From: Synechocystis sp. PCC 6803 substr. PCC-P
GTDB lineage: Bacteria; Cyanobacteriota; Cyanobacteriia; Cyanobacteriales; Microcystaceae
Length of the DNA stretch: 32,000 nt
Direction of reading: 5' to 3'
Assembly: GCF_000284455.1 (NCBI RefSeq)
Contig: NC_017039.1
Location: forward strand, 3,060,001 to 3,092,000
Shown here: piece after piece, positions 13,724-26,263 of the stretch
Layout: every line of letters begins with the position of its first letter
How positions within the stretch are numbered: position 1 is the first letter of the stretch
Notes under the pieces: generated by a model
What the model saw: the letters and a program-made list of their open reading frames with translations, nothing else
Told to the model about the DNA's origin: nothing
The model's database searches: none
Position numbers and translations under genes: made by a program

Positions 13724-16378
13724 TTATAATTCGTCAACTTTAGTTGGGGAAGTTGACGTATCTTCGAGGACAAAATAGCCATTCCGACCCCGTTTCTTGG
13801 CCTGATAGAGCGCATCATCGGCACATTTTACCCAAGAGGCCAAGGACAATCCAGGCCGGGGTACAGCACAATGAATCCCAATACTGACAGTGACATAATT
13901 AGCAATCTCAGAGGTGGGATGGGAGATCGCTTTAGCATCCATCAAAGTTTTAATCCTTTGGGCAACGATAACCGCGCCGGATAAATCGGTTCTGGGTAAA
14001 ATTAAGGCAAATTCTTCTCCCCCATAGCGGGCTACTAGGTCTGAAGTGCGATGGACAGATTCTTGCAAAATGGCGGCGACAATGCGTAAACAGTGGTCTC
14101 CGGCTTGATGGCCGAGGGTATCGTTGTAGAGTTTGAAATAGTCAATGTCCAACATCACCAAGGTTAAGGACTCAGTTTCGCGAAAAGCAATTTGCCATTC
14201 CCGTTCCAAGGCCTGGTCAAAGAACCGACGATTATAAACTCCGGTGAGGCCATCAATTTGAGTCAATCGTTCCAGTTCAATGTTGACTTCTTGGAGTTTT
14301 TCTTGGGCTTGTTTGAGCGGGTCAATGTTTTGAATTTGGCAGACATAATAGAGCGGTTGTTGTTGAGCATCTCGGACCAAACTGACATTCAACAGACCCC
14401 AAATCCAACGCCCATCCCGGTGTTGATAGCGGCGTTCTTGGGTATAGGCCATAATTTCGCGGTTGAGCAGTTGTTGAGTTAGGTCTCCTTGGAATGGCAC
14501 CCAATTGGGATCTGTTACTTCTGCCACATCATGGTCTTGCAGTTCATCGGAAGTATAGCCCAACAGCTCACAAAAGGCGGGATTGACCTCAAGAAATTTA
14601 CCATCTAAGGAAATCAGTGCACTACTCACGGCCGTAGTTTGGAAGGTTTGCCGGAAGCGTTCTTCACTTTCTGCTAAGGCCTCTTGTATGCGGAATTTGT
14701 CGGTAATGTCCCGTCCTTCACAGAGGAGAAAAATTATCCGCTGGTCGGTGTCGTAGATGGGCCGAATCGAAAAATCCAAAATAACTTTTTGCCCATTATT
14801 GCCCAAATTTTCTACGTCATAGCGAATCAGAATCCCTTGAGCGGCCTGGTGTATCGCGGATTTGAGGTCAGCTTTGAGCTGTTCGGATGCCTGCCACCAG
14901 GGAGTTTCCCAAAAATCTTGGTCGACAATCTCATCCACCGTAATGCCAGCAAAATCCAGGGCCCGTTGATTCACTTTGACGACTTTCCCGGTGGGGGTTA
15001 ACAGAGCGGTAAATTGGGAGGCTTGATCAAATAGGGCTTGCATCATCGCTTCCCGTTCAGCCAAAGCCAGTTGCACTTCTTTGAGCGGGGTAATGTTGAT
15101 ATTTAAGCCACTCATTCTGACCGGTTGGCCGGCTTCGTTATACTCTACGTGGCCGGTACCTAAAATCCAAATACAATTCCCGTCGGCCTGGACTAGGCGA
15201 AATTCCCCTTGATAGGGTTCTCCGGTGGCAATAGCTAAGTTAACCCCCGCCTGGACGTGCTCCCGATCGTCGGGATGGACTAATTTGTAGAAAGTGTCTT
15301 GGTTTTTCTCGTAGCTGTCGGGGGTATAGCCCAAAAGATGATCGGACTGCTCGGACCAATCGGCTTGATCGGTGATTAAATCCCTTTCCCACCAGTTGGT
15401 GGAGGTGGATTCCAGGGTCATTCGCAACCGTTGTCCACTTTTTTGGAGAGCCTCTTCAATTTGTTTACGCTCAGTAATGTCAATCATAATCCCGCTGAGT
15501 TGAATGGGCCGACCGGTTTCATCCCGCTCCAGGGCCGCCAAATCCGCAATCCAGACCATTTGGCCATTGGGGGGAATCATCCGAAATTCAACCCTATAGG
15601 GCGCGTCGTGATTTAGGGTAGCTTCCACTGCGGTTTGCACCTTGGCCCGGTCTTCCGGGTAAATCAGCGCAATGGCATCGGCCCAGGTTGTGGGTAGTTC
15701 ATCCCCGTGGCGGCCGAGCAAATCATGGAATGAGGGAGCTGAGTACATCTGGTCGTTGACGATATCCCATTTCCACCAATTGGCGGTTTCGGCAGAGAGG
15801 GCCAGGCGGAGAGTGGCTTCATTTTCTTTCAGGGCGGCTTCGGCAAGTTTTTGCTCGGTAATGTCGAGGTTAATGCCGCTCATCCGCAGGGCTTGGCCAT
15901 TGGCATCCCGTTGCACCATACCTCTGGCCATAATCCAACGAATCGTCCCATCGGGGTGGACAAAGCGAAATTCGGTTTTATAGGGAATCCCATTTTCTAA
16001 GGAATCGTATAACTTTGCCCGGGTGGGTTCTACGTCGTCGGGATGGAGAAAACTTAAGAAGGAAGCAATATTTTTGGGGTAGGAGTTGGGGGCGCGGCCC
16101 ACCATGGCATCAAAGGTGTCTGACCAATCCACCTCATTGGTTTTGATATCCCAATCCCACCAACTTGTATCGGTTGATTCGAGGGCGAAGCGGAATCGTT
16201 CTTCACTTTTTTGCAGGGCCTGGGTTTGCTGTTGAAGGCGACGGAGAGGGCGGTTAATGGACTGGATTACGGCCAAACTTAGGATCACTAACAGGCTTAA
16301 TCCCAAGGCGGCGATCGCCAGCGTGGAGACTAAACTTTCATTGGCAACATTAATGAAACTTTGTGCGGAAATTGCCAT
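13724..16378 (-). CDS. Membrane-anchored multi-PAS diguanylate cyclase (GGDEF)
   Basis: 884 aa. One N-terminal TM segment. Five PAS/PAC modules; the first three are paralogous (WWDWD / WWKWD / WWERD). GGDEF domain with RYGGEEF and an RxxD I-site (RTSD) five residues upstream. No EAL domain. Confidence 0.85.
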   Translation of the reverse strand: MAISAQSFINVANESLVSTLAIAALGLSLLVILSLAVIQSINRPLRRLQQQTQALQKSEERFRFALESTDTSWWDWDIKTNEVDWSDTFDAMVGRAPNSYPKNIASFLSFLHPDDVEPTRAKLYDSLENGIPYKTEFRFVHPDGTIRWIMARGMVQRDANGQALRMSGINLDITEQKLAEAALKENEATLRLALSAETANWWKWDIVNDQMYSAPSFHDLLGRHGDELPTTWADAIALIYPEDRAKVQTAVEATLNHDAPYRVEFRMIPPNGQMVWIADLAALERDETGRPIQLSGIMIDITERKQIEEALQKSGQRLRMTLESTSTNWWERDLITDQADWSEQSDHLLGYTPDSYEKNQDTFYKLVHPDDREHVQAGVNLAIATGEPYQGEFRLVQADGNCIWILGTGHVEYNEAGQPVRMSGLNINITPLKEVQLALAEREAMMQALFDQASQFTALLTPTGKVVKVNQRALDFAGITVDEIVDQDFWETPWWQASEQLKADLKSAIHQAAQGILIRYDVENLGNNGQKVILDFSIRPIYDTDQRIIFLLCEGRDITDKFRIQEALAESEERFRQTFQTTAVSSALISLDGKFLEVNPAFCELLGYTSDELQDHDVAEVTDPNWVPFQGDLTQQLLNREIMAYTQERRYQHRDGRWIWGLLNVSLVRDAQQQPLYYVCQIQNIDPLKQAQEKLQEVNIELERLTQIDGLTGVYNRRFFDQALEREWQIAFRETESLTLVMLDIDYFKLYNDTLGHQAGDHCLRIVAAILQESVHRTSDLVARYGGEEFALILPRTDLSGAVIVAQRIKTLMDAKAISHPTSEIANYVTVSIGIHCAVPRPGLSLASWVKCADDALYQAKKRGRNGYFVLEDTSTSPTKVDEL

Positions 16379-16665: not shown

Positions 16666-19038
16666 TCAAATAATATCCTCTCTTTTTTTGAACAGGAAAA
16701 TAACTACGAGGCAAACAAAACCTTGGAGTAATAAAATTTCCCAGTTGACCAAAAGATTATTCCAACTAGGGTCGTAAACTAGGGTGGCTTTAAAAGGAGA
16801 TTCCAATACGGTACCATCGGGAAAAATGACTGGCTCTGGCACTAGACTGTTGATGTCTAATAATGTGCCATAGGCACCGATAGACCAACGGCTGACCATA
16901 AACCAAGAAAGATATTGACTCACACCTTTAATTTGGAACAGTACGCCGGAGAAGATGATTTGGGGCAGTAGCAAAATAGGTAGAGCGGTGTTAGCCTGGG
17001 TTTCACTTTTGACCAAGGTAGATACCATTAAGCCTAAGCAAATAGAACTGAAAAGGGTGAGATAACTGGTGATAATTAGCCCCAAACCCCAGGGCAATAG
17101 GGGAGGCTGGGGATGGTCGAAGGCAATGAGGATAATCACCACCATAGCAAGGGTTTGCAAAAGCGCTAATCCTGACAATACTGTCACCTTAGAAGCAATA
17201 TAGGCGAACAGGTTAAGATTAACTAATCTTTCTCGGCTGTAAATATCATTTTCTTTGACAATTTCTTGGAGAGAACTGGCGAGACCAACCCAGATGGCGG
17301 CACAGCTAAATACTAATAGTACGGTCTGAGCTAGGGGCGCAAGTTTGGGATCCGCTTCACTACCCAGAATAAATGGTTCCCTAGTGGCGATCGCCAGATC
17401 GATTAATAAAATGCCAATGGGGGCGGTGGCAATGGAAATACCGATATTGACCGGATCCCTAGCCATAATTTGCCAGTATCTTTGGCACAGAATCCAGGTT
17501 TGGCGCAGGGGAGATACCCTGGGAGGACTAGGTCTAGGGGCGGCAACAGCGGAATTACTCACCCCCAACCGTTGATCAATGTACTGATGTTGATAGCTAG
17601 ACCGGCTATAGCGTTGGGCGGCTTTGATCACTGCTGATTGATTATCCAATTGAATATAAACATCAGCAAAATCACCATTATGGAGGTTAAAAAATTGGCA
17701 AGCATCGCTAAAAGTGCCGAAATAACACAAATTGCCCCCCTGGCCTAAAAACACCAGGCGATCGCATAGGTTAATGTTGCCGGTGGCATGGGTTACCAAC
17801 ACAATAGTTCGTCCCTGATCCGCTAGCTTTCGTAATAATTGCATCATCTTTTTATCTAGACCAGGATCTAAACCCGATGTCGGTTCATCGAGGAAAAATA
17901 ATTTCGGATCCACCAGTAACTCCACGCCGATGGATACCCGTTTGAGTTGGCCGCCGCTTAATTTTTTGACCAGAACATGGCGACGTTCCTGCATTTCAAT
18001 TTGGCCCAAGGTTTTCTCAACAATTTCGTCAATATCCGCATCTTGGGGTAATCTTAATTTAGCCGCATACCGCAAAGCTTCCTCTACGGTTAGGGAACTG
18101 TGGATAATATCTTTTTGGGGCACGTAACCAATTTGATTACGGTAAAGGTTAAAATTATTTCTCAGATCTTCACCGTTCAAATAAACTGTGCCAGACGTAG
18201 TAGGTTCAATACCTAATAAAGTCCGCATAAAAGTCGATTTGCCTGCGCCACTTCCCCCCACTAAAGCTACCAATTGACCTGGTTCAATGGGCAAAGAAAT
18301 TTGGTTAAGGAGTGTAATTTCTTCGCTCTGATTACCTTGAACAGTGCGGACGATATTGCGGGCATCAAGGCGAATATTATCCCCGGTGTCGGCAATGAAT
18401 AATTGATCGTTTTGTAATACCAGGGTGTAGGGAACTATTTTGATGATGGCGGCGGTGTTAATCAGAATTTTACCGTTGACTTTAGTGCCATTAACGTAAA
18501 CACCATTGGTGCTGTAATCGTGTAAAAGATAGGTATTTGGCTCTAAATAATCCAGGACAGCATGTTGGCGGGAAACTGCGGAGGAAAGTAATTGTAAGTT
18601 GGCAGTTTCGTCCCGCCCAATAACCACAGATTTTTGCTTTAAATTGATGGATAATAGCGATGTTAAATTGGTAGGGCTAGAGCCATTGGGAGTAAAATAT
18701 TTAATAGTAATAAGAATATTAATATTTTGTCCAATCTTAATAACATCTCCATTCTGTAATGGGTAGCCAATATCATGGGTGATTAAATGATGATTAATAA
18801 ATAGCTTGTTACTGCTGGGATTGAGGCGATCGCCGTCATAAATAAAGTAATTACCTTGATCTTCTACTAAAGTAGCTTGACAACGACTAATAATGCTCCA
18901 ATCAGTGGGGACTATCAGGTCGGCAAATTGGGAATCTCGACCTAAAATATGTTTACTTTTAGTTAATTCAAAAGGGGGTAAGCTTTGACCTTGATTAGTG
19001 ACAATAATGTATGGTCTATTATTTTGATTCATGACCAT
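16666..19038 (-). CDS. ABC transporter (ABCG/ABC-2 type, fused NBD and permease) with two N-terminal FHA domains
   Basis: 790 aa. FHA1 at aa 29-103 (LGRD, SRCQA, SSNKLFIN). FHA2 at aa 137-202 (IGRD, SRQHA, STNGVYVNG). Walker A GGSGAGKST, signature LSGGQLKR, Walker B LFFLDEPTSGLD. C-terminal multi-TM ABC-2 domain. Confidence 0.9.
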   Translation of the reverse strand: MVMNQNNRPYIIVTNQGQSLPPFELTKSKHILGRDSQFADLIVPTDWSIISRCQATLVEDQGNYFIYDGDRLNPSSNKLFINHHLITHDIGYPLQNGDVIKIGQNINILITIKYFTPNGSSPTNLTSLLSINLKQKSVVIGRDETANLQLLSSAVSRQHAVLDYLEPNTYLLHDYSTNGVYVNGTKVNGKILINTAAIIKIVPYTLVLQNDQLFIADTGDNIRLDARNIVRTVQGNQSEEITLLNQISLPIEPGQLVALVGGSGAGKSTFMRTLLGIEPTTSGTVYLNGEDLRNNFNLYRNQIGYVPQKDIIHSSLTVEEALRYAAKLRLPQDADIDEIVEKTLGQIEMQERRHVLVKKLSGGQLKRVSIGVELLVDPKLFFLDEPTSGLDPGLDKKMMQLLRKLADQGRTIVLVTHATGNINLCDRLVFLGQGGNLCYFGTFSDACQFFNLHNGDFADVYIQLDNQSAVIKAAQRYSRSSYQHQYIDQRLGVSNSAVAAPRPSPPRVSPLRQTWILCQRYWQIMARDPVNIGISIATAPIGILLIDLAIATREPFILGSEADPKLAPLAQTVLLVFSCAAIWVGLASSLQEIVKENDIYSRERLVNLNLFAYIASKVTVLSGLALLQTLAMVVIILIAFDHPQPPLLPWGLGLIITSYLTLFSSICLGLMVSTLVKSETQANTALPILLLPQIIFSGVLFQIKGVSQYLSWFMVSRWSIGAYGTLLDINSLVPEPVIFPDGTVLESPFKATLVYDPSWNNLLVNWEILLLQGFVCLVVIFLFKKREDII

Positions 19039-19091
19039 TTCAAATTATTGAAAAATAAAATATTCATAGTTAAAACTGTAAATTATAGACA

Positions 19092-19961
19092 TCAAATACC
19101 ACTTCGAGCCACCATGAAAATTTGACTTGCTCTTGGTGAAGCAACATAACGCCAATGCCATGGTTCATAACTTACTCCTTGACTATTGTTAGGAGGAAAT
19201 GAAAGTTCAAAACCATACTGATTAGCATTTCTAGCTAACCATTGATAAGCAGATGTATTTTCAAAATTTATTTTTAAATCATTTGCTGGATTAGCACCAT
19301 CTCCTATATCTAAAGCATAGCCAGTGTGGTGTTCACTGTGTCCGGGAGGGGCACTAAACCTTGCCGCTGCTTCTTTACCACCTTTTCTTTTAATTTGATT
19401 TTGAAATAAAGCATCCTGAGAGGCAATAGAACGAAATCCAGAAATAATAGTTAATCTTACTCCTTGAACTTGAGCATCAGCTTGCATCTTTTTAAAAGCA
19501 GTGGCTGCTTCTTGATCTAAAGATTCACTGCGGCCGTAATATTCACCTACTTTTACTAATCTTTGCTGGCTATTTTCAGGGAAAGAATAATGACCTAAAT
19601 TAGTTTTAACCGCAATATTGTTGGGAACTTCTCTTGATCCTTGCTGTTCTGCTAGCGGGGATAATTGTTCATAATCTGGTGGAAGTCCTGGCAATAGGGG
19701 GCTAGTCTGGATTTCGGGGACTTCAGTTATTAATGGTTCGAGATTAGTTGGAGTCGGAGTGGGAACCGGAAGAGAGGAAAGCTCTCTATCTTCAAGGGGG
19801 GGGGGAGATGGAATTTTTTCTTGATTATGAATGCCACTAGTTTCGTTAATAGATAATTGTTTAGCATTAGGTAAGTACCACCAACCATACAACATTCCCA
19901 CTAACAGAGCGGCAACAAAAAAGTTTACCAATTGAAAGTTATTTTTTAAAAATTTTAGCAT
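19092..19961 (-). CDS. VanY-type D-Ala-D-Ala carboxypeptidase (peptidase M15B), membrane-anchored
   Basis: Zn motifs SEHHTGYALD and EPWHWRY, plus SGFRS. N-terminal TM segment FFVAALLVGMLYGWWYL. I prefer the ATG at 19961, which has AAGGAAA just upstream. The track start at 20009 would overlap the kinase gene by 31 nt. Confidence 0.85.
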   Translation of the reverse strand: MLKFLKNNFQLVNFFVAALLVGMLYGWWYLPNAKQLSINETSGIHNQEKIPSPPPLEDRELSSLPVPTPTPTNLEPLITEVPEIQTSPLLPGLPPDYEQLSPLAEQQGSREVPNNIAVKTNLGHYSFPENSQQRLVKVGEYYGRSESLDQEAATAFKKMQADAQVQGVRLTIISGFRSIASQDALFQNQIKRKGGKEAAARFSAPPGHSEHHTGYALDIGDGANPANDLKINFENTSAYQWLARNANQYGFELSFPPNNSQGVSYEPWHWRYVASPRASQIFMVARSGI

Positions 19962-19978
19962 TTTCCTTAGAATCAAGT

Positions 19979-21496
19979 CTAAAAGTTTACTAATTGACTG
20001 GCAATCCACCCCGTTGATCCTGAACCATAGTGATAAACTTTATACCAAACATGGCCACTGGAATCAGTACTACTATCTAAGATGTCTAAACCCTCACCTG
20101 TATAGCCTTGAGTAATAACGCCATAATCTGTTCCCGGACCAGAGCGAATATTTTTAGATCCAGGAATTCCTCCAATAGTTGCGCTAGCACCGCTGGCCAT
20201 AGCCTTTGCCTGATTTGCTAAAACTTGAACTCTCTGTCTTTCTGCGGCTAAACGCTGCCTTTCTTGCTTAGCTCGTTCGGCCTCAGCAGCTAGTCTTTGA
20301 CGTTCTTCTTCTACTCGTTTTTGTTCTAATTCCCTTTGACGTTTTTCATTCTCGGCAATTTTTTGCTCTGCTTCTATTCGTTTTTGCTCTGCTTCCTGTT
20401 TTTCTTTTTCAGCTTGAGCCGCCCTAGCTTCAGCTTCTTTAATTTGTTGAGTAATTATAAACCCACCTCCTAAACCAGCAGTGACCACAATAATCCCAAT
20501 AAGAACAGTTAACAGCGTTGCAATTTTTGATTTTCCATTGTTGTTCGAGTAGTTATTATGAGAGTTACCGACGGGCTTAACAACAGTTTCAGCCGTTTTG
20601 GTGGAACTTCTCGTGACTAAAAATTCATTACTAGGTGCAACTCGAACAGTTTCCATTGGAAGTGCTGGCTCAGCCCCAGAACTAATTAAGGAGTGTAGAG
20701 CCTGATACATTGCTTCGGCACTGGAATAACGACGACTAGGCTCCATTTCTATGGCTTTATTGATTACTTTAGCCAAGACAGAATCGATTTTAGATACATG
20801 ACTTTGCCAGTCTAATTGGCCTGTTTGCTGGTCGCTAGAAAATTCAACTGGCAACTTCTTGGTAAGAGTGTAAATAATAGTCAGTCCTAAAGCATAAAGA
20901 TCGGTGCTGAAAACAGAACGTCCCGAACTTTGTTCAGGAGCCATAAATCCCCTAGTGCCAATAACTACAGAGCTAACAGTAGAACCTGAGCCTAAAGTAA
21001 CAGCCCCCATAGTTTCCTTAACAGCACCAAAATCAATCAGAACGGGTAAGTGATCACTGTCCCGCAAAATAATATTTTCTGGCTTAATATCTCGGTGAAT
21101 AATTCCTTTGCTATGAATGTATTTAAGGGTAGTTAAAAGAGAAGAAAGAATAGTCTTTGCTTGTTCTGAACTAATAGGAGCAATTTCATTTAGGCTAACT
21201 CCTTGAATATACTCTTGGACTAAGTAAAATTCATTATCGTTTGAGAAATAACTATATAATTTGGGAATTTGACTGTTGTGCTCTCCTAAATCTTCTAACA
21301 CTGAAGCTTCTTTTTCAAACAATTTTTGAATTAACTCAGTGGAGGTATTACTGTTTGCATTGGCTGGTTTAAGACGTTTTATTACCACCAGCTTTTGAGA
21401 TGGTATCTGAGTATCTTTGGCTAAAAAAGTATCGCCAAATCCTCCTGAACCAAGGGATTTAACAATTTCATAACGGTCGAGTACTTGGACATTCAT
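19979..21496 (-). CDS. spkD: Hanks-type Ser/Thr protein kinase with TM segment, extracytoplasmic coiled coil and SH3b domain
   Basis: 505 aa. G-loop GSGGFG, VVIK, HRDIKPEN, DFG, APE. TM at aa 325-348. E/K/Q/R coiled coil at aa 351-432. C-terminal SH3_3-like NIRSGPGTDYGVI...GWIASQLV. The symbol comes from remembered synteny (sll0776). Confidence 0.85.
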   Translation of the reverse strand: MNVQVLDRYEIVKSLGSGGFGDTFLAKDTQIPSQKLVVIKRLKPANANSNTSTELIQKLFEKEASVLEDLGEHNSQIPKLYSYFSNDNEFYLVQEYIQGVSLNEIAPISSEQAKTILSSLLTTLKYIHSKGIIHRDIKPENIILRDSDHLPVLIDFGAVKETMGAVTLGSGSTVSSVVIGTRGFMAPEQSSGRSVFSTDLYALGLTIIYTLTKKLPVEFSSDQQTGQLDWQSHVSKIDSVLAKVINKAIEMEPSRRYSSAEAMYQALHSLISSGAEPALPMETVRVAPSNEFLVTRSSTKTAETVVKPVGNSHNNYSNNNGKSKIATLLTVLIGIIVVTAGLGGGFIITQQIKEAEARAAQAEKEKQEAEQKRIEAEQKIAENEKRQRELEQKRVEEERQRLAAEAERAKQERQRLAAERQRVQVLANQAKAMASGASATIGGIPGSKNIRSGPGTDYGVITQGYTGEGLDILDSSTDSSGHVWYKVYHYGSGSTGWIASQLVNF

Positions 21497-21573
21497 GTTG
21501 TTTGTTTATCTAAAATCAAAAAATTGAAATACTTAAATTCAACTTTAATTCAATCAATTGAACTGTAAAAAAC

Positions 21574-21951
21574 TTATCTTTCAACTTCAATATGACAATT
21601 GTAATTCCCATCTTTTTTGGCTTTCCTTCTTAAAATATCAGCCGCCACATTCCAGTTATGCTTAGAAGCAGCGGTATAGGGCATACCACCACAATAACCA
21701 CCGACAAAGTACCAGTCATCTTTTTCTGCTGTAGAAACAGAACAACTTCCGCCACCATTACCTCGACAGTTACGGATTGCGGCCTGTCTTGCCTTTTCCA
21801 TAGTTGAGTAACCAGTGGCCCAACCCCAACCCCTTACTCCCTGGGCGATGGCCGAGTAGCCAGCCAAAGCAGGGGAAGCCGCCAAGCAGGTGCTCAATAG
21901 GGACAGACCAGAAATAGAAAGGACGTTTTTGGGACTGAAGATAATTTTCAT
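21574..21951 (-). CDS. Secreted Cys-containing DUF4189-like protein
   Basis: 125 aa. Signal peptide ending ASPALA. Contains GWGWATGYSTMEKARQAAIRNCRG...GSCSV...GGYCGG, resembling DUF4189. Confidence 0.6.
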   Translation of the reverse strand: MKIIFSPKNVLSISGLSLLSTCLAASPALAGYSAIAQGVRGWGWATGYSTMEKARQAAIRNCRGNGGGSCSVSTAEKDDWYFVGGYCGGMPYTAASKHNWNVAADILRRKAKKDGNYNCHIEVER

Positions 21952-22248
21952 AGCCGTATCGTTGCCTCATACAGACAAACTTATAGGAATATTACCCTAG
22001 TTTTACGAAAAGGATCTCATTCCGTCAGGACTCTTTTATTAACTTTCGTTAAAGCCGTTTTCCTTAGGCGATCGCCATGGAGCAAAGGGAAAAACGGAAG
22101 AAAATTTATCTGGATTTTGGTAGTACTGTTAAAGTTAATTTCACCAAAATTAGTCAATGGGATAGCATAGTCAGTGCGACAATTCTGTGCTCATTTTCCC
22201 TTGGTCTGTCAAAAGAACCTAATTATCCCGACATATTGGAGTGAACTA

Positions 22249-22413
22249 ATGGATATTGTTAAGATCATTTGTGCGATTCTATTGCCGCCCCTGGGGGTTT
22301 TCCTGCAAGTGGGTATTGGCAAAGACTTTTGGATTAACCTACTGCTGACCATTTTTGGTTTGTATATCCTCGGTCTTGTCCATGCCATTTGGGTCATTGC
22401 CAGGGAACGTTAA
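22249..22413 (+). CDS. Pmp3/YqaE (UPF0057) family small proteolipid
   Basis: 54 aa from the ATG at 22249: MDIVKIICAILLPPLGVFLQVG...LLLTIFGLYILGLVHAIWVI. Two TM helices with the family PPLGV motif. Confidence 0.8.
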   Translation: MDIVKIICAILLPPLGVFLQVGIGKDFWINLLLTIFGLYILGLVHAIWVIARER

Positions 22414-22504
22414 TTAGTATCAATAAAAACATGGCTAGAGGATCAAGTTTGGTCTACTCCAGCCATGTTTAAGCAGAAATTAATTGCCTAAGATAAAAAT
22501 AATC

Positions 22505-25500
22505 ATGACCAAATTTTTTGTGGACCGGGGCGGCACCTTTACCGATATTGTTGCCATTACCAAAGATACAAAATTAGCCCAACATTCCGCTAAAGATAGG
22601 CGATTTAGCGTATTTATCCTACCCACAAAAGAAACGGTAATTTTATTTAAATTATTATCAGAAAATCCGGAACTTTATGACGATGCAGTTATCCATGGCA
22701 TCCGAATTATTTTAGGTTTATCTTCCAACGAACCCATCGCCCCAGAAAAAGTTAGCATGGTTAAAATGGGCACCACCGTAGCCACCAATGCGTTGCTGGA
22801 ACAGAAAGGAGATCCCCTAGTTTTAGTGATGACCCAAGGATTTCGAGACGGGTTGGCGATCGCCTATCAAAATCGGCCGGACATTTTTGCCTTGGAGATT
22901 AAAAAGCCTAGCTTGCTCTATGGCCCGGTCATTGAAGCGATGGAAAGAATTAATGCCCAGGGAGAAATTTTACAACCCCTAGATAAGCATAGGATTCACC
23001 AGGATTTACAACAGGCCTATGACCAAGGAATTCGCAGTGTGGCGATCGCCTTAATGCACAGTTATCTTTATCCTGACCATGAATTAATTATTACTGAAAT
23101 TGCCCAAAACATTGGCTTTACTCAAATTTCCCGTTCCTCTGAAGTTAGCCCCCTAATTAAATACATTTATCGTGGCGACACCACCGTTGTGGATGCCTAT
23201 CTTTCCCCTTTACTGCGGCGTTACGTTGACCAAGTGCAAGGACAATTACCAGGCATAACAGTACAGTTTATGCAGTCCCATGGAGGTCTGGTGGATGGTA
23301 GTCATTTCCAGGGACGGGATAGCATTCTTTCTGGCCCAGCGGGGGGCATTGTCGGCGCTGTCAAAACCTCCCAGCGGGCAGGCTTTCGCAACATTATTAC
23401 CTTTGACATGGGGGGCACTTCCACCGATGTGGCCCATTTTAACGGTACCTATGAACGATTATGGGAGACGGAAATCGCCGGGGTACGTCTGCGGGTACCA
23501 AGCTTAGCCATTCATACAGTGGCGGCAGGGGGCGGTTCCATTTTGCACTTTGACGGGCAAAGATACCAAGTAGGTCCCGATTCTGCGGGGGCTAACCCTG
23601 GGCCAGCTTGTTACCGTCGGGGCGGGCCGTTAACAGTAACCGATGCCAATGTCATGGTGGGACGGGTGCAAAAAAGCTATTTTCCCCCTGTATTTGGCCC
23701 AGAAGGAAATCAGCCCTTAGATATTGATATTGTTCAGGAAAAATTCATCGATTTGGCAAATCAAATAGCTCAATTCACTGCAATTAAACCTATACCAGAG
23801 GAAGTGGCGGATGGCTTTCTGGCGATCGCCGTAGAAAATATGGCCAATGCCATCAAAAAAATCAGTTTACAACGGGGCTACGACTTGGAAAGCTATACCC
23901 TATGCTGCTTTGGCGGGGCAGGGGGTCAGCTAGTTTGTCGATTGGCCGATCGCCTAGGTATTAGTAAGATTTTTCTTCATCCCTACAGCGGTGTCCTTTC
24001 AGCCTATGGCATGGGTTTAGCGGAGCAGCGGGCTTTGCGGGCCATGACCATTGAGCAACCTTTAACAGCGGATAATTTAGAGAGCTTACTAAGCAATTAT
24101 CAAACCCTAGAAACCCAGTTAGCTGAAACTTTTGTTAATAGTTCCAACAGCAATGGTAAAGCAGAAAATTTTAGTAAATCACCGGAAATACGTCGTCAAA
24201 TTGATTTGAAATATCGAGGAACTGACACTAGCTTAAGTCTTGATTTTTGCCCAGATTTAACCAGTTTAATCACTCAATTTACAGAACAACATCAACAACG
24301 CTATGGGTTTAATCAAACAGGCACTCCCCTCACCATTGCTGCTATTAGTTTAGAGTATATTCAACCTCTAGATTTGCCGCCGGAACCCTGTTTAGCTTCA
24401 GTGGTAAAACCGGCCCAAGCTTTAGAAATGGTGGATTTTTATGGCGATCGCCAATGGCATGCCATGCCTGTGTACCAACGTCAGCAGTTAGCTCCACACC
24501 AGGTAATTACCGGGCCAGCAATGATTGCGGAAGAGACTGGTACTATTGTAGTTGATCTCGGTTGGCAAGCCCAGTTGGGCCAAGCATCCCCATGGGAACC
24601 CCAACCTTGCCATTTGGTGTTGGAAAAAATAGTTAATCAAACAAAAGCTGCTCCTGATTCAATTAATAACAAAGAGGAATTGGAAGTTAAGGTAAATACT
24701 GATAGTTATGAAACTATTAGTGGGAATCAAGTCGATCCAGTGCGCCTAGAAATATTCAAAAACCTTTATCAATTTATTGCCGAAGAAATGGGCATTGTGC
24801 TGCAAAACACCGCTAGCTCAGTCAACATTAAAGAACGGCTCGATTTTTCCTGTGCCATTTTCGATGCCAATGGAGACTTGGTAGCCAACGCGCCCCACAT
24901 TCCTGTGCATTTGGGTTCCATGGGGGAAAGTGTCAAAGCTCTTTTGCACGATCGCCATCAGCAATTGCAACCGGGGGATGTGTATCTCTCCAATAATCCC
25001 TACAACGGTGGCACCCATTTACCGGATGTGACAGTGATAACGCCCCTGTTTGACTCTGCGGGTAAGGAAATTTTGTTTTATGTTGCTTCCCGGGGCCACC
25101 AAGCAGATTTGGGCGGCATTACCCCCGGCTCCATGCCTCCCCACAGTCAAAATATTAACCAAGAAGGTATTTTATTTGACAATGAGTTGTTAGTTAAAGC
25201 AGGGGAATTACAAACGCAAGCAATTCGTAATCATTTGCTTAATAACATTTATCCAGCTCGCAATCCCGAACAAAATTTAGCTGACTTTTCTGCTCAAATT
25301 GCCGCCAATCAACGGGGCATAATGGGTTTAGAAAGTATGGTAGCCCAGTATGGTTTAAACACCGTTCAGCAATATATGGCCCATGTGCAAAATAATGCCG
25401 AACAAGCAGTAACCAAGGCGATCGCCAAGCTGAAATCCGGTCAATTTGTCACAGAAATGGATAACGGCATTCGCATTGCGGTAACTATCACCGTTAACGC

Positions 25501-26263
25501 CTCCCAAGGCACCGCCATAATCGATTTTTCCGGCACTTCTCCCCAGGGCGATCATAATTTCAATACCCCCAAAGCGGTGGTACAAGCAGTGGTTTTGTAC
25601 GTTTTCCGCACCCTGGTACAGGACCCCATTCCCCTCAATGCCGGTTGCCTCAAACCGTTAAAAATTATTATTCCCCCCGGTTGCCTCCTCGATCCCCAAT
25701 ATCCCGCCGCCGTGGTGGCCGGTAATGTGGAAACTTCCCAGGCGATCGCCGACACGTTATACGGAGCGTTGGGTTGTTTGGCCGCCAGCCAGGGCACCAT
25801 GAATAACCTCACCTTTGGAGATGGTCAATATCAATACTATGAAACCATTGCAGGAGGCAGTGGCGCTGGCCCTAGTTTTGCTGGTTGTGACGCAGTGCAA
25901 ACCCACATGACTAATTCCCGCCTGACAGATCCAGAAATCTTAGAAAGTCGTTTCCCGGTGTTGTTGGAACAATTCGCCATTCGGCCCCACAGCGGTGGCG
26001 CAGGTAAATTTCCCGGTGGCAACGGCATTGTGCGCCAGTTTAAGTTCCTTCAACCTCTATCAGTAGCTATTTTGGCTAATCGGCGGCGGGTGGCACCCTT
26101 TGGGTTGGCCGGGGGAGAAGCAGGAGCCGTGGGGGAAAATTGGTTACTGCGTCGTTCTGGGGATAAGGTACGGTTAGATAGTTGCGCCCAGGTGGATGTG
26201 GCCCCTGGCGATCGCCTAATAATTAAAACACCGGGGGGCGGAGGTTATGGCCATCGAGATTGA
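22505..26263 (+). CDS. ATP-dependent 5-oxoprolinase-type fused hydantoinase A/B protein
   Basis: About 1250 aa. N-terminus [13 protein letters not shown], then HyuA-type and HyuB-type halves. The ATG at 22505 (MTKFF) is preferred over the track start at 22484. Confidence 0.9.

Follow-up and report, generated by a model that had tools for sequence, protein, structure and literature searches.

The spkD gene cluster of Synechocystis

The DNA analysed here is a stretch of 32,000 nucleotides (nt) from the chromosome of Synechocystis sp. PCC 6803 substr. PCC-P (contig NC_017039.1, positions 3,060,001 to 3,092,000), which we call the window and number from its first letter. It contains four open reading frames (ORFs) on the minus strand, sll0775 to sll0778, with spacings of 77, 17 and 53 nt, as an earlier note made from the sequence alone had described. 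In the direction of transcription, sll0775 (21574-21951) encodes a small secreted DUF4189 protein of 125 amino acids (aa), sll0776 or spkD (19979-21496) a bitopic receptor Ser/Thr kinase of the Hanks type with 505 aa, sll0777 (19092-19961 from its ATG) a membrane-anchored zinc carboxypeptidase of the M15B (VanY/LdcB) type with 289 aa, and sll0778 (16666-19038) an ABCG-type half-transporter of 790 aa with two N-terminal FHA domains. All domains that had been proposed for these proteins, namely DUF4189, Pkinase with SH3_3, VanY, and two FHA with ABC_tran and ABC2_membrane, were matched by Pfam. The 505-aa SpkD is letter-identical on other Synechocystis chromosomes, such as CP129343.1, where its neighbours are also the same. 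On balance, we favour the view that sll0776, sll0777 and sll0778, with sll0775 as a passenger, form a co-transcribed cell-envelope signalling module in which the kinase switches the exporter by way of the FHA domains.

SpkD presents an SH3b domain on a charged stalk

The cytoplasmic kinase domain of SpkD covers residues 9-263 (20708-21472; this and all further features of the four genes are on the minus strand) and is matched by Pfam Pkinase at 1.1e-40. The motifs of an active kinase (GSGGFG, K40, HRDIKPEN, DFG and GFMAPE) are all present and are invariant among the orthologues, and kinase activity of SpkD in vitro has been reported in the literature. A hydropathy scan gave a single transmembrane (TM) segment at residues 325-343 (score 2.43), and the TM helix is taken to span about residues 325-348 (20453-20524). 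It is followed by a periplasmic stalk of 84 residues (20201-20452), 64% of which are Glu, Lys, Arg, Asp or Gln and none of which is Pro or Gly, and then by a C-terminal SH3b domain at residues 449-503 (19988-20152; Pfam SH3_3, 3.3e-11). Since there is one TM helix, the SH3b domain lies outside the cytoplasm provided that the kinase domain is inside, and with this proviso the extracytoplasmic SH3b that had been proposed for the kinase holds good. That SpkD has an SH3b domain is already on record in databases and papers.

From its composition, the stalk is predicted to form an extended helix or coiled coil about 12 nm long, so that the SH3b domain would sit level with the wall. A similarly charged stalk is found in the SpkD orthologues at loci L087, L089 and L092, and the orthologues that share the SpkD architecture are 55-69% identical to it. 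When compared with Protein Data Bank (PDB) sequences, the SH3b domain gave weak matches, all of them to SH3b domains of cell-wall hydrolases or amidases. PASTA domains were not matched in SpkD, and the NCBIfam model PknB_PASTA_kin, which aligned to the kinase part only, scored 152 against a cut-off of 450.

The segment between the kinase domain and the TM helix contains an in vivo phosphosite, S289 (Spat et al. 2015). Residues 283-288 directly before it (20633-20650) fit the pattern T-[IVLM]-x-[VIFLM]-[AS]-P, which is a common juxtamembrane motif of cyanobacterial membrane Hanks kinases (L007-L092). We considered T283 within this motif as an FHA docking site specific to the exporter and rejected it, as the motif is equally frequent in kinases encoded far from the exporter. 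It may instead be a general site of autophosphorylation or FHA docking.

Sll0778 is an ABCG-type exporter with tandem FHA domains

The N-terminal part of Sll0778 consists of FHA1 (about residues 10-115; 18694-19011, from the alignment and the strands of the model), a Ser/Thr/Pro-rich linker (residues 116-129, TPNGSSPTNLTSLL; 18652-18693) and FHA2 (about residues 130-217; 18388-18651, from Pfam and the alignment), and the two FHA stretches are matched by Pfam at 3e-26. These are followed by the ATP-binding cassette (ABC) nucleotide-binding domain (NBD; residues 224-450, 17689-18369), which is supported by Pfam ABC_tran (1.3e-30) and by PDB matches, and by an ABC-2/ABCG-type membrane domain (16672-17511; Pfam ABC2_membrane) with six TM helices by hydropathy, the last two of which (TM5 and TM6) are joined by an extracytoplasmic loop of about 55 aa.

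From the alignment of 20-21 orthologues, it is clear that FHA2 is fully canonical, since G141, R142, S156, R157, H159, S176, N178 and G179 are all invariant. In FHA1, G33, R34 and N77 do not vary, and S51 reaches a conservation of at least 90%; the His of the SxxH motif is replaced by Gln in Sll0778 and is either Gln or His among the orthologues. Judged by these residues, both domains appear suited to phosphothreonine (pThr) binding, FHA2 as a canonical domain and FHA1 by retaining the Gly-Arg, Ser and Asn ligands. The linker between them has about 10-15 residues, with a predicted local distance difference test score (pLDDT) below 50 at residues 119-128 of the model, and its sequence is unconserved over 20 orthologues.

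The AlphaFold model of Sll0778 (pLDDT 78.9, predicted TM-score 0.75) shows two beta-sandwiches, the NBD and six TM helices. In a Foldseek search it matched ABCG2, ABCG1, ABCG5/G8 and plant ABCG structures with target-normalised TM-scores of 0.77-0.82 over about 600 columns, and the designation 'ABCG-type' is therefore correct at the level of the fold. The double-FHA exporter of ABCG type that the earlier note had recognised is thus confirmed by Pfam, model and structural matches alike. Sll0778 shares with ABCG2, ABCG1, ABCG5/G8 and plant ABCG16/25 the order of NBD before membrane domain, the six TM helices and the fold, but differs from them in its low identity (18-24%) and in the additional N-terminal tandem FHA module of about 220 residues.

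The orthologues of Sll0778 are 45-76% identical to it and have a nearly constant length (about 786-834 aa) throughout the cyanobacteria sampled. The copies of Umezakia (L089) and Anabaenopsis (L090) group with the Synechocystis clade at 66-67% identity, compared with 55-57% for other Nostocales copies. The gene at these two loci, or in Umezakia the whole three-gene module, may have been acquired by horizontal transfer or may represent a distinct paralogue.

Sll0777 is a membrane-anchored peptidase of the M15B family

Sll0777 has a TM anchor at residues 9-27 by hydropathy, a Pro-rich spacer, and a catalytic domain at residues 146-274 that is matched by Pfam VanY (3.8e-48, 163 bits). The zinc-binding and catalytic motifs of M15B/LAS zinc peptidases, H-x6-D (within SxHxxGxAxD) and ExxH, are present, and the extended motifs SAPPGxSEHHTGxAxD (SEHHTGYALD) and EPWHWR are invariant in an alignment of nine Sll0777 orthologues. 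These zinc and catalytic motifs are common to Sll0777, LdcB (DacB/YodJ) and VanY/VanXY (MEROPS M15B, LAS fold).

The nearest PDB structures are LdcB-type enzymes, namely 4mph and 4jid (102 bits, Bacillus) and 4ox3; the catalytic domain scores 102 bits against B. anthracis LdcB and 84 bits against B. subtilis YodJ, compared with the lower 55-60 bits against VanXY and VanY structures. All NCBIfam scores fall far below the respective cut-offs (vanXY 90.8 against 250, vanY_AFMPt 69 against 425, LdcB 77 against 275), meaning that Sll0777 is not an equivalog of any characterised enzyme. Because of these sub-cut-off scores, and because the closest solved relatives are LdcB L,D-carboxypeptidases, a D,D specificity is unproven. 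From the earlier description as a membrane-anchored VanY-type D,D-carboxypeptidase, the VanY family and the anchor can thus be retained, and the D,D assignment cannot. Unlike LdcB, VanY and VanXY, Sll0777 combines a TM anchor and a Pro-rich spacer with a genetic tie to a signalling protein that ends in SH3b.

The longest ORF of sll0777 begins at a GTG at position 20009 and overlaps spkD, and a Shine-Dalgarno-like AAGGA lies inside the 17-nt gap between spkD and sll0777. Directly after the membrane anchor, the codons for PSPPPL contain a homopolymer of ten C (19796-19805). In one Synechocystis assembly (L005, SRR11267205) this tract has nine C, and the resulting frameshift splits the gene into ORFs of 76 and 200 aa. 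Either the tract is slip-prone and disables the peptidase of some substrains, or the assembly is in error here.

The kinase, the peptidase and the exporter recur together in cyanobacteria

For comparison, we have used 86 exporter-centred loci (80 listed in a scan of species-representative genomes and the six closest relatives found by exact-protein look-up) and 80 peptidase-centred loci around relatives of Sll0777 from metagenomes, 166 in all. The genes for SH3b-kinase, VanY and the double-FHA ABC protein (2FHA-ABC) are colinear in six genomes or contigs, namely PCC 6803, Synechocystis sp. LKSZ1 (L087), the heterocystous Umezakia ovalisporum (L089), where the gaps are 19 and 87 nt, and, at L092, L093 and L094, a Snowella-like contig and two metagenome contigs. 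In seven further loci (L013, L044, L061, L069, L070, L096 and L111), the three genes are again neighbours, with kinase-VanY and the ABC gene transcribed divergently; these loci belong to Nostoc linckia FACHB-104, Oscillatoria sp. HE19RPO, Phormidesmis-type genomes and two metagenome contigs. Together, the colinear and divergent cases are spread over three separate transporter clades. DUF4189, on the other hand, was found in none of the 166 loci. Of the conserved four-gene neighbourhood that had been envisaged, it is therefore the three-gene core that occurs in other genomes, in colinear or divergent form, and sll0775 is a strain-specific passenger of the unit, co-induced with the other genes yet not a conserved member.

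The LKSZ1 cluster has two peculiarities: a nucleotidyltransferase/HEPN toxin-antitoxin pair lies between VanY and the ABC gene (L087:7285-7997), and the SH3b-kinase is preceded by a further Hanks kinase that has no SH3b.

Clustering of the neighbouring ORFs, up to 4 kb from the exporter gene, showed a Hanks kinase at 34 of the 86 listed loci (a descriptive count), and Hanks kinases were the sole neighbour family that recurs across lineages. The other recurrent families reflect synteny within a single clade, for example the EVE-domain and ABC_ATPase genes of Microcoleus. Up to 2 kb from the exporter gene, kinase domains number 1.0-1.1 per 10 kb, as against 0.09-0.27 per 10 kb at 2-10 kb. The ectodomains of these neighbouring kinases vary, with SH3b once or twice, an ARC6-like IMS domain, YARHG, or none detected.

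The strongest new result of the comparison is the connection to the cell wall, since in other lineages the place of VanY is taken by other peptidoglycan enzymes, namely PBP4, beta-lactamase-like proteins, an AmiA-like amidase or a polysaccharide deacetylase. At five loci, in Anabaena, another Nostocales genome, a Leptolyngbya and at L045, the gene immediately after the kinase encodes a beta-lactamase-fold protein of about 430-490 aa. In seven Oscillatoriales loci, a D-Ala-D-Ala carboxy/endopeptidase of the PBP4 type, called from TIGR00666 scores at or near the cut-off, is encoded on the opposite strand 0.1-2.4 kb upstream of the exporter gene. An AmiA-like amidase and a kinase, both Pfam-tested, lie a few kb beyond PBP4 at L017 and L045, and the same two genes are probably present at L020 and L030, judging from ORF size and position. 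The most complete arrangement is that of L045:2797-12361, in which the genes, each tested against Pfam or NCBIfam, are in the order beta-lactamase-fold protein, Hanks kinase, AmiA-like amidase, PBP4-type peptidase, an ORF of 116 aa and 2FHA-ABC; the 116-aa ORF sits where L017 has a Pfam-tested DUF4760 protein. The ORF layouts of L017, L020 and L030, in which some of the ORFs were tested, resemble that of L045. Anabaenopsis has the order diaminopimelate epimerase, 2FHA-ABC, polysaccharide deacetylase, kinase.

The closest relatives of Sll0777, with catalytic domains at least 56% identical, are almost always preceded by a gene whose product ends in SH3b, mostly a Hanks kinase, whereas the more distant VanY homologues show none of this SH3b-linked context. 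The tightest pair is thus that of a transmembrane signalling protein ending in SH3b, followed by VanY.

The partner is of another kind in some loci. The gene before VanY at L105:5775-7811 encodes a STAND NTPase (nSTAND2/ATPase_2) that also carries a TPR repeat and, at its C-terminus, two SH3b domains, all Pfam-tested, and that at L116:3382-7659 a HEAT-repeat protein of 1425 aa with SH3b at its end. By tblastn only, SH3b without a kinase precedes VanY also at L100, L102-L104 and L107.

Taken together, there are two conserved pairs, one being [signalling domain]-TM-SH3b with VanY and the other the Hanks kinase with 2FHA-ABC, and in Synechocystis the two are joined through the kinase. The SH3b/VanY pair seems to serve as a module whose cytoplasmic parts can be exchanged.

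Transcription and flanking genes

Table S1 of Barske et al. 2023 places spkD in TU3253, a transcription unit from Kopf et al. 2014, with the entry 'Operon: Yes'. The RNA-seq data on lexA disruption by Kizawa et al. 2016 list all four genes as induced: at one stage of growth, sll0775, spkD, sll0777 and sll0778 were up 13.5-, 15.4-, 9.0- and 5.1-fold, and at a second 8.5-, 8.4-, 6.0- and 4.1-fold. The fall in fold-change along the cluster is as expected of one transcript running 5' to 3'. The LexA motif of Kizawa et al., TTTTGWTNAC, has no match in the window, and the effect of lexA may therefore be indirect.

None of the three intergenic gaps contains a terminator-like hairpin or a fold more stable than shuffled sequence. 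Likewise, the promoter and terminator scans and the folding of the three gaps and the 3' end gave nothing above shuffled controls, a set of null results that is informative solely on the absence of terminators. The promoter is expected in the non-coding region upstream of sll0775 (21952-22173, minus strand), where promoter matches were of consensus level only and not above chance.

The protein encoded by sll0775 itself exceeds the family cut-off of Pfam DUF4189 (1.6e-07, 32 bits) and by inspection of its sequence has a signal peptide at about residues 1-30 and four Cys in its mature part. Divergent from it are a gene for a small membrane protein of the Pmp3 family (22174-22413, plus strand) and a hydantoinase/oxoprolinase gene of 1252-1259 aa (Hydantoinase_A, Hydantoinase_B; 22484-26263, plus strand), which have the 222-nt upstream region in common with sll0775. 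On the other side, sll0779 (13724-16378, minus strand) starts 287 nt downstream of sll0778 on the same strand and encodes a protein of 884 aa with multiple PAS domains and GGDEF. Among the rows covered of the Kizawa et al. 2016 lexA table, it does not stand beside sll0775-sll0778.

Published work on SpkD and its phosphorylation

Both Sll0776 and Sll0778 are included in the list of Synechocystis phosphoproteins compiled in a 2025 review (Hagemann and colleagues). The word FHA is absent from this review of cyanobacterial Ser/Thr phosphorylation, and a review of 2018 gave the substrates of SpkD as 'not determined'. The phenotypes described for SpkD in papers concern inorganic carbon, tricarboxylic acid (TCA) cycle metabolites and polyunsaturated fatty acids, and work with a later mutant collection failed to reproduce the carbon phenotype. 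The remark in the earlier note that SpkD has been discussed in carbon and TCA-cycle metabolism and not in the context of the envelope is accurate for the open literature that we searched, no source of which contains a link between SpkD and Sll0778.

Comparison with known kinase-FHA systems

The system most similar in logic is that of PknF and Rv1747 of M. tuberculosis, in which PknF phosphorylates and activates the transporter. Rv1747 and Sll0778 have the same half-transporter order of FHA-FHA-NBD-membrane domain, both are phosphorylated in vivo, and in both cases a single-pass membrane Hanks kinase is encoded nearby and co-transcribed. Rv1747 has been implicated in the envelope through glycolipid export, and for Sll0778 the envelope link comes from the gene context. 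One paper describes Rv1747 as unlike any other known ABC transporter.

The two transporters differ clearly in the linker between the FHA domains. In Rv1747, it comprises about 100 disordered residues with the acceptors T152 and T210 and is associated with intramolecular compaction and clustering (PMC8339232), whereas the linker of Sll0778, with about 10-15 residues, is unconserved. Because the latter is short, disordered in the model and unconserved, the mechanism of linker phosphorylation described for Rv1747 cannot apply as such. The FHA domains are also no closer to those of Rv1747 than to others. In a PDB profile search, Rv1747 FHA-2 (6cah) was found at 5e-11, ranking with EmbR and GarA, and Rv1747 FHA-1 (6ccd) at 3e-06, aligned to the FHA2 region of Sll0778; the best match of Sll0778 FHA1 was the FHA domain of Synechocystis Slr1951. 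A direct PDB sequence search with the N-terminal 228 residues of Sll0778 did not find Rv1747. In addition, unlike PknF, SpkD bears an SH3b ectodomain on a predicted coiled-coil stalk; the Synechocystis cluster has a wall carboxypeptidase as a third partner; and the exporter-linked kinase of other cyanobacteria is often divergently transcribed. The likeness to PknF and Rv1747 that had been pointed out from the sequence thus extends to the domain logic and the adjoining kinase, and it does not extend to the long linker or to a special relationship of the FHA domains. By analogy, the Sll0778 system may be expected to work like the Rv1747 system, not as a demonstrated orthologue of it.

A second comparison is with the PASTA kinases PknB, StkP and PrkC and the PknB-MviN-FhaA system, in which a receptor Hanks kinase binds peptidoglycan and generates pThr, which an FHA reader recognises to control envelope synthesis or export. 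The likeness of the SpkD module to these is one of logic. The ectodomain is SH3b here (ARC6-like IMS, YARHG or none in other cyanobacteria) instead of PASTA, the FHA reader is fused to the transporter in Sll0778 instead of being a separate adaptor, and the transporter is of the ABCG type instead of MurJ/MviN.

Discussion

The features described above suggest how the module might work. SpkD, with its kinase domain in the cytoplasm, would use the TM helix and the stalk to present SH3b in the periplasm, most likely to the stem peptides of peptidoglycan. Sll0777, held in the same membrane on its Pro-rich tether, would remove the terminal D-Ala of stem peptides and thereby create or erase the signal for SH3b. 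SpkD, once activated, would autophosphorylate or phosphorylate Sll0778, and the FHA pair would bind the pThr made by SpkD, either on the kinase itself (in the activation loop or juxtamembrane segment) or on the N-terminal region of the transporter. This binding would alter the ATPase and transport activities of the homodimeric ABCG-type Sll0778, in one direction or the other. The cargo, by analogy with the ABCG fold, is probably a lipid or a lipid-linked envelope component. Because the linker between the FHA domains has only about 10-15 residues, docking of the FHA pair onto phosphorylated SpkD is the more likely mode, compared with the Rv1747 mechanism. The circuit of wall sensing, stem trimming and exporter gating that the earlier note proposed is what we, too, infer from the gene context.

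Several observations weigh against this interpretation and should be considered. As far as can be judged from the sequence, the linker of Sll0778 is too short and variable to hold a conserved acceptor site of the Rv1747 kind. About 60% of the 86 listed exporter loci have no kinase within 4 kb, including those of the close relatives Geminocystis and Cyanobacterium aponinum and all Microcoleus and Microcystis loci, and the exporter therefore does not require an adjoining kinase. Conversely, pairs of SH3b-kinase and VanY occur without an exporter within 8 kb at L101, L106 and L109. Furthermore, loci of related species are not independent, so that the counts given here are descriptive and overstate the number of independent events. 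No phosphosite of Sll0778 was found in the supplements of Spat 2015, Toyoshima 2020 or Barske 2023. A fully segregated spkD mutant was nearly free of phenotype, with slight salt sensitivity alone, and a wall phenotype of such a mutant has not been reported. Finally, Chen et al. 2021 relay an earlier reverse transcription PCR (RT-PCR) experiment in which the intergenic regions were not amplified and an operon was denied. The co-transcription that the earlier note wished to see checked thus has the TU3253 assignment and the four-gene induction in the lexA mutant on its side and this relayed denial against it; we have weighed the two genome-wide data sets more heavily and regard the spkD cluster as probably co-transcribed.

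As an alternative, the genes would be independent neighbours with a common promoter: SpkD would act mainly in carbon/TCA or fatty-acid metabolism, the exporter would be under another kinase or none, and the peptidase would be a housekeeping enzyme. The published SpkD phenotypes in inorganic carbon, TCA metabolites and polyunsaturated fatty acids would be explained in this way, as would the many exporter loci without a nearby kinase and the relayed RT-PCR claim against an operon; in M. tuberculosis, too, Rv1747 is phosphorylated by several kinases, and a pknF mutant grows normally, without a growth defect. We nevertheless consider such independence unlikely, since the linkage is found in three transporter clades, in two orientations and with differing kinase ectodomains and wall enzymes, with kinases enriched 5 to 10-fold beside the exporter gene. 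The joint induction in the lexA mutant and the place of spkD in a multi-gene transcription unit also speak against it, and so does the failure of the later mutant collection to reproduce the carbon phenotype. Still less credence is given to a function in resistance or detoxification, in which the kinase would sense damage by wall-targeting antibiotics or peptides, the peptidase would remove the D-Ala-D-Ala target, as is the case for VanY in glycopeptide resistance, and the pump would expel the compound. Matches of Sll0777 to the VanXY and VanY models (below their cut-offs), the multidrug exporters ABCG2, Pdr5 and Cdr1 among the structural neighbours of Sll0778, the beta-lactamase-fold genes after the kinase in other lineages and the rise of the cluster together with stress genes in the lexA mutant would all fit such a role. 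The cluster, however, contains no genes for a van ligase, a dehydrogenase or VanRS, Sll0777 is nearer to the housekeeping LdcB enzymes, and an exporter that is near-universal, single-copy-like and constant in length suits a core function in the envelope better. Glycopeptides, moreover, normally do not cross the outer membrane.

The repeated position of the ABC gene beside wall hydrolase or peptidase genes of several families, together with the 55-residue extracytoplasmic loop between TM5 and TM6, brings to mind FtsEX, a mechanotransmitter in which the ABC protein transports nothing and serves as an ATP-driven on/off switch of a periplasmic peptidase; here, the kinase would set its activity. 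This is very improbable for Sll0778, given that its fold is of the ABCG type (type V) and not the MacB/FtsX type of the known mechanotransmitters, that the exporter is often found without a peptidase nearby, and that VanY is more closely tied to the SH3b protein than to the ABC protein. The slightest chance of all is left for a role in conflict or phage defence, with a Hanks kinase, or elsewhere a STAND NTPase, sensing an attack on the wall and triggering an effector. The kinase domain of SpkD does score up to 314 bits against the PADLOC models of PD-T4-6, a single-gene anti-phage kinase, other genomes connect the SH3b/VanY pair to a STAND NTPase with TPR repeats, and a toxin-antitoxin pair has been noted above inside the LKSZ1 cluster; but the PADLOC match spans the generic kinase domain only, PADLOC gave nothing for the peptidase and DUF4189 and generic ATPase matches only for the transporter, and the genes lie on the chromosome, show sequence conservation and have a broad distribution, unlike the cargo of patchy islands. 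As a general observation on the PD-T4-6 models, they would readily flag ordinary receptor kinases. None of these alternatives fits the linkage to several kinds of wall enzyme across lineages as well as envelope signalling does.

The annotations of the genes, the existence of the cluster and its co-induction were already known. In the open literature searched, we have found neither the reading of the cluster as a kinase and FHA-exporter pair with a wall peptidase nor its recurrence among cyanobacteria, where the wall enzymes are non-orthologous and the sensor outputs exchangeable. These patterns allow a broader and much more tentative proposal, which we regard as possible and at present rather doubtful, that cyanobacteria have an equivalent of the wall-status sensing by the PASTA kinases of Gram-positive bacteria, assembled from other parts. 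In such a scheme, a periplasmic SH3b domain and a membrane-anchored VanY/LdcB-type enzyme would be the sensor pair that reads and edits stem ends, and the outputs (Hanks kinase, STAND NTPase or HEAT-repeat protein) would be interchangeable. In Synechocystis and many other cyanobacteria, the kinase output would act through the tandem FHA domains to gate the near-universal ABCG-type exporter, whose cargo would be an envelope lipid or a lipid-linked precursor.

The main cyanobacterial model organism has 12 annotated Ser/Thr kinases, SpkD among them, and the phenotypes reported for SpkD conflict. The gene context now provides a first plausible target (Sll0778), a candidate wall partner (Sll0777) and a link to the envelope. 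The 2FHA-ABCG exporter is present in nearly every cyanobacterial lineage sampled, and the identity of its cargo would fill a gap in envelope biogenesis. The gating of an ABC transporter by FHA domains has so far been studied solely in M. tuberculosis Rv1747, and the Synechocystis module would offer a second, independent system for it.

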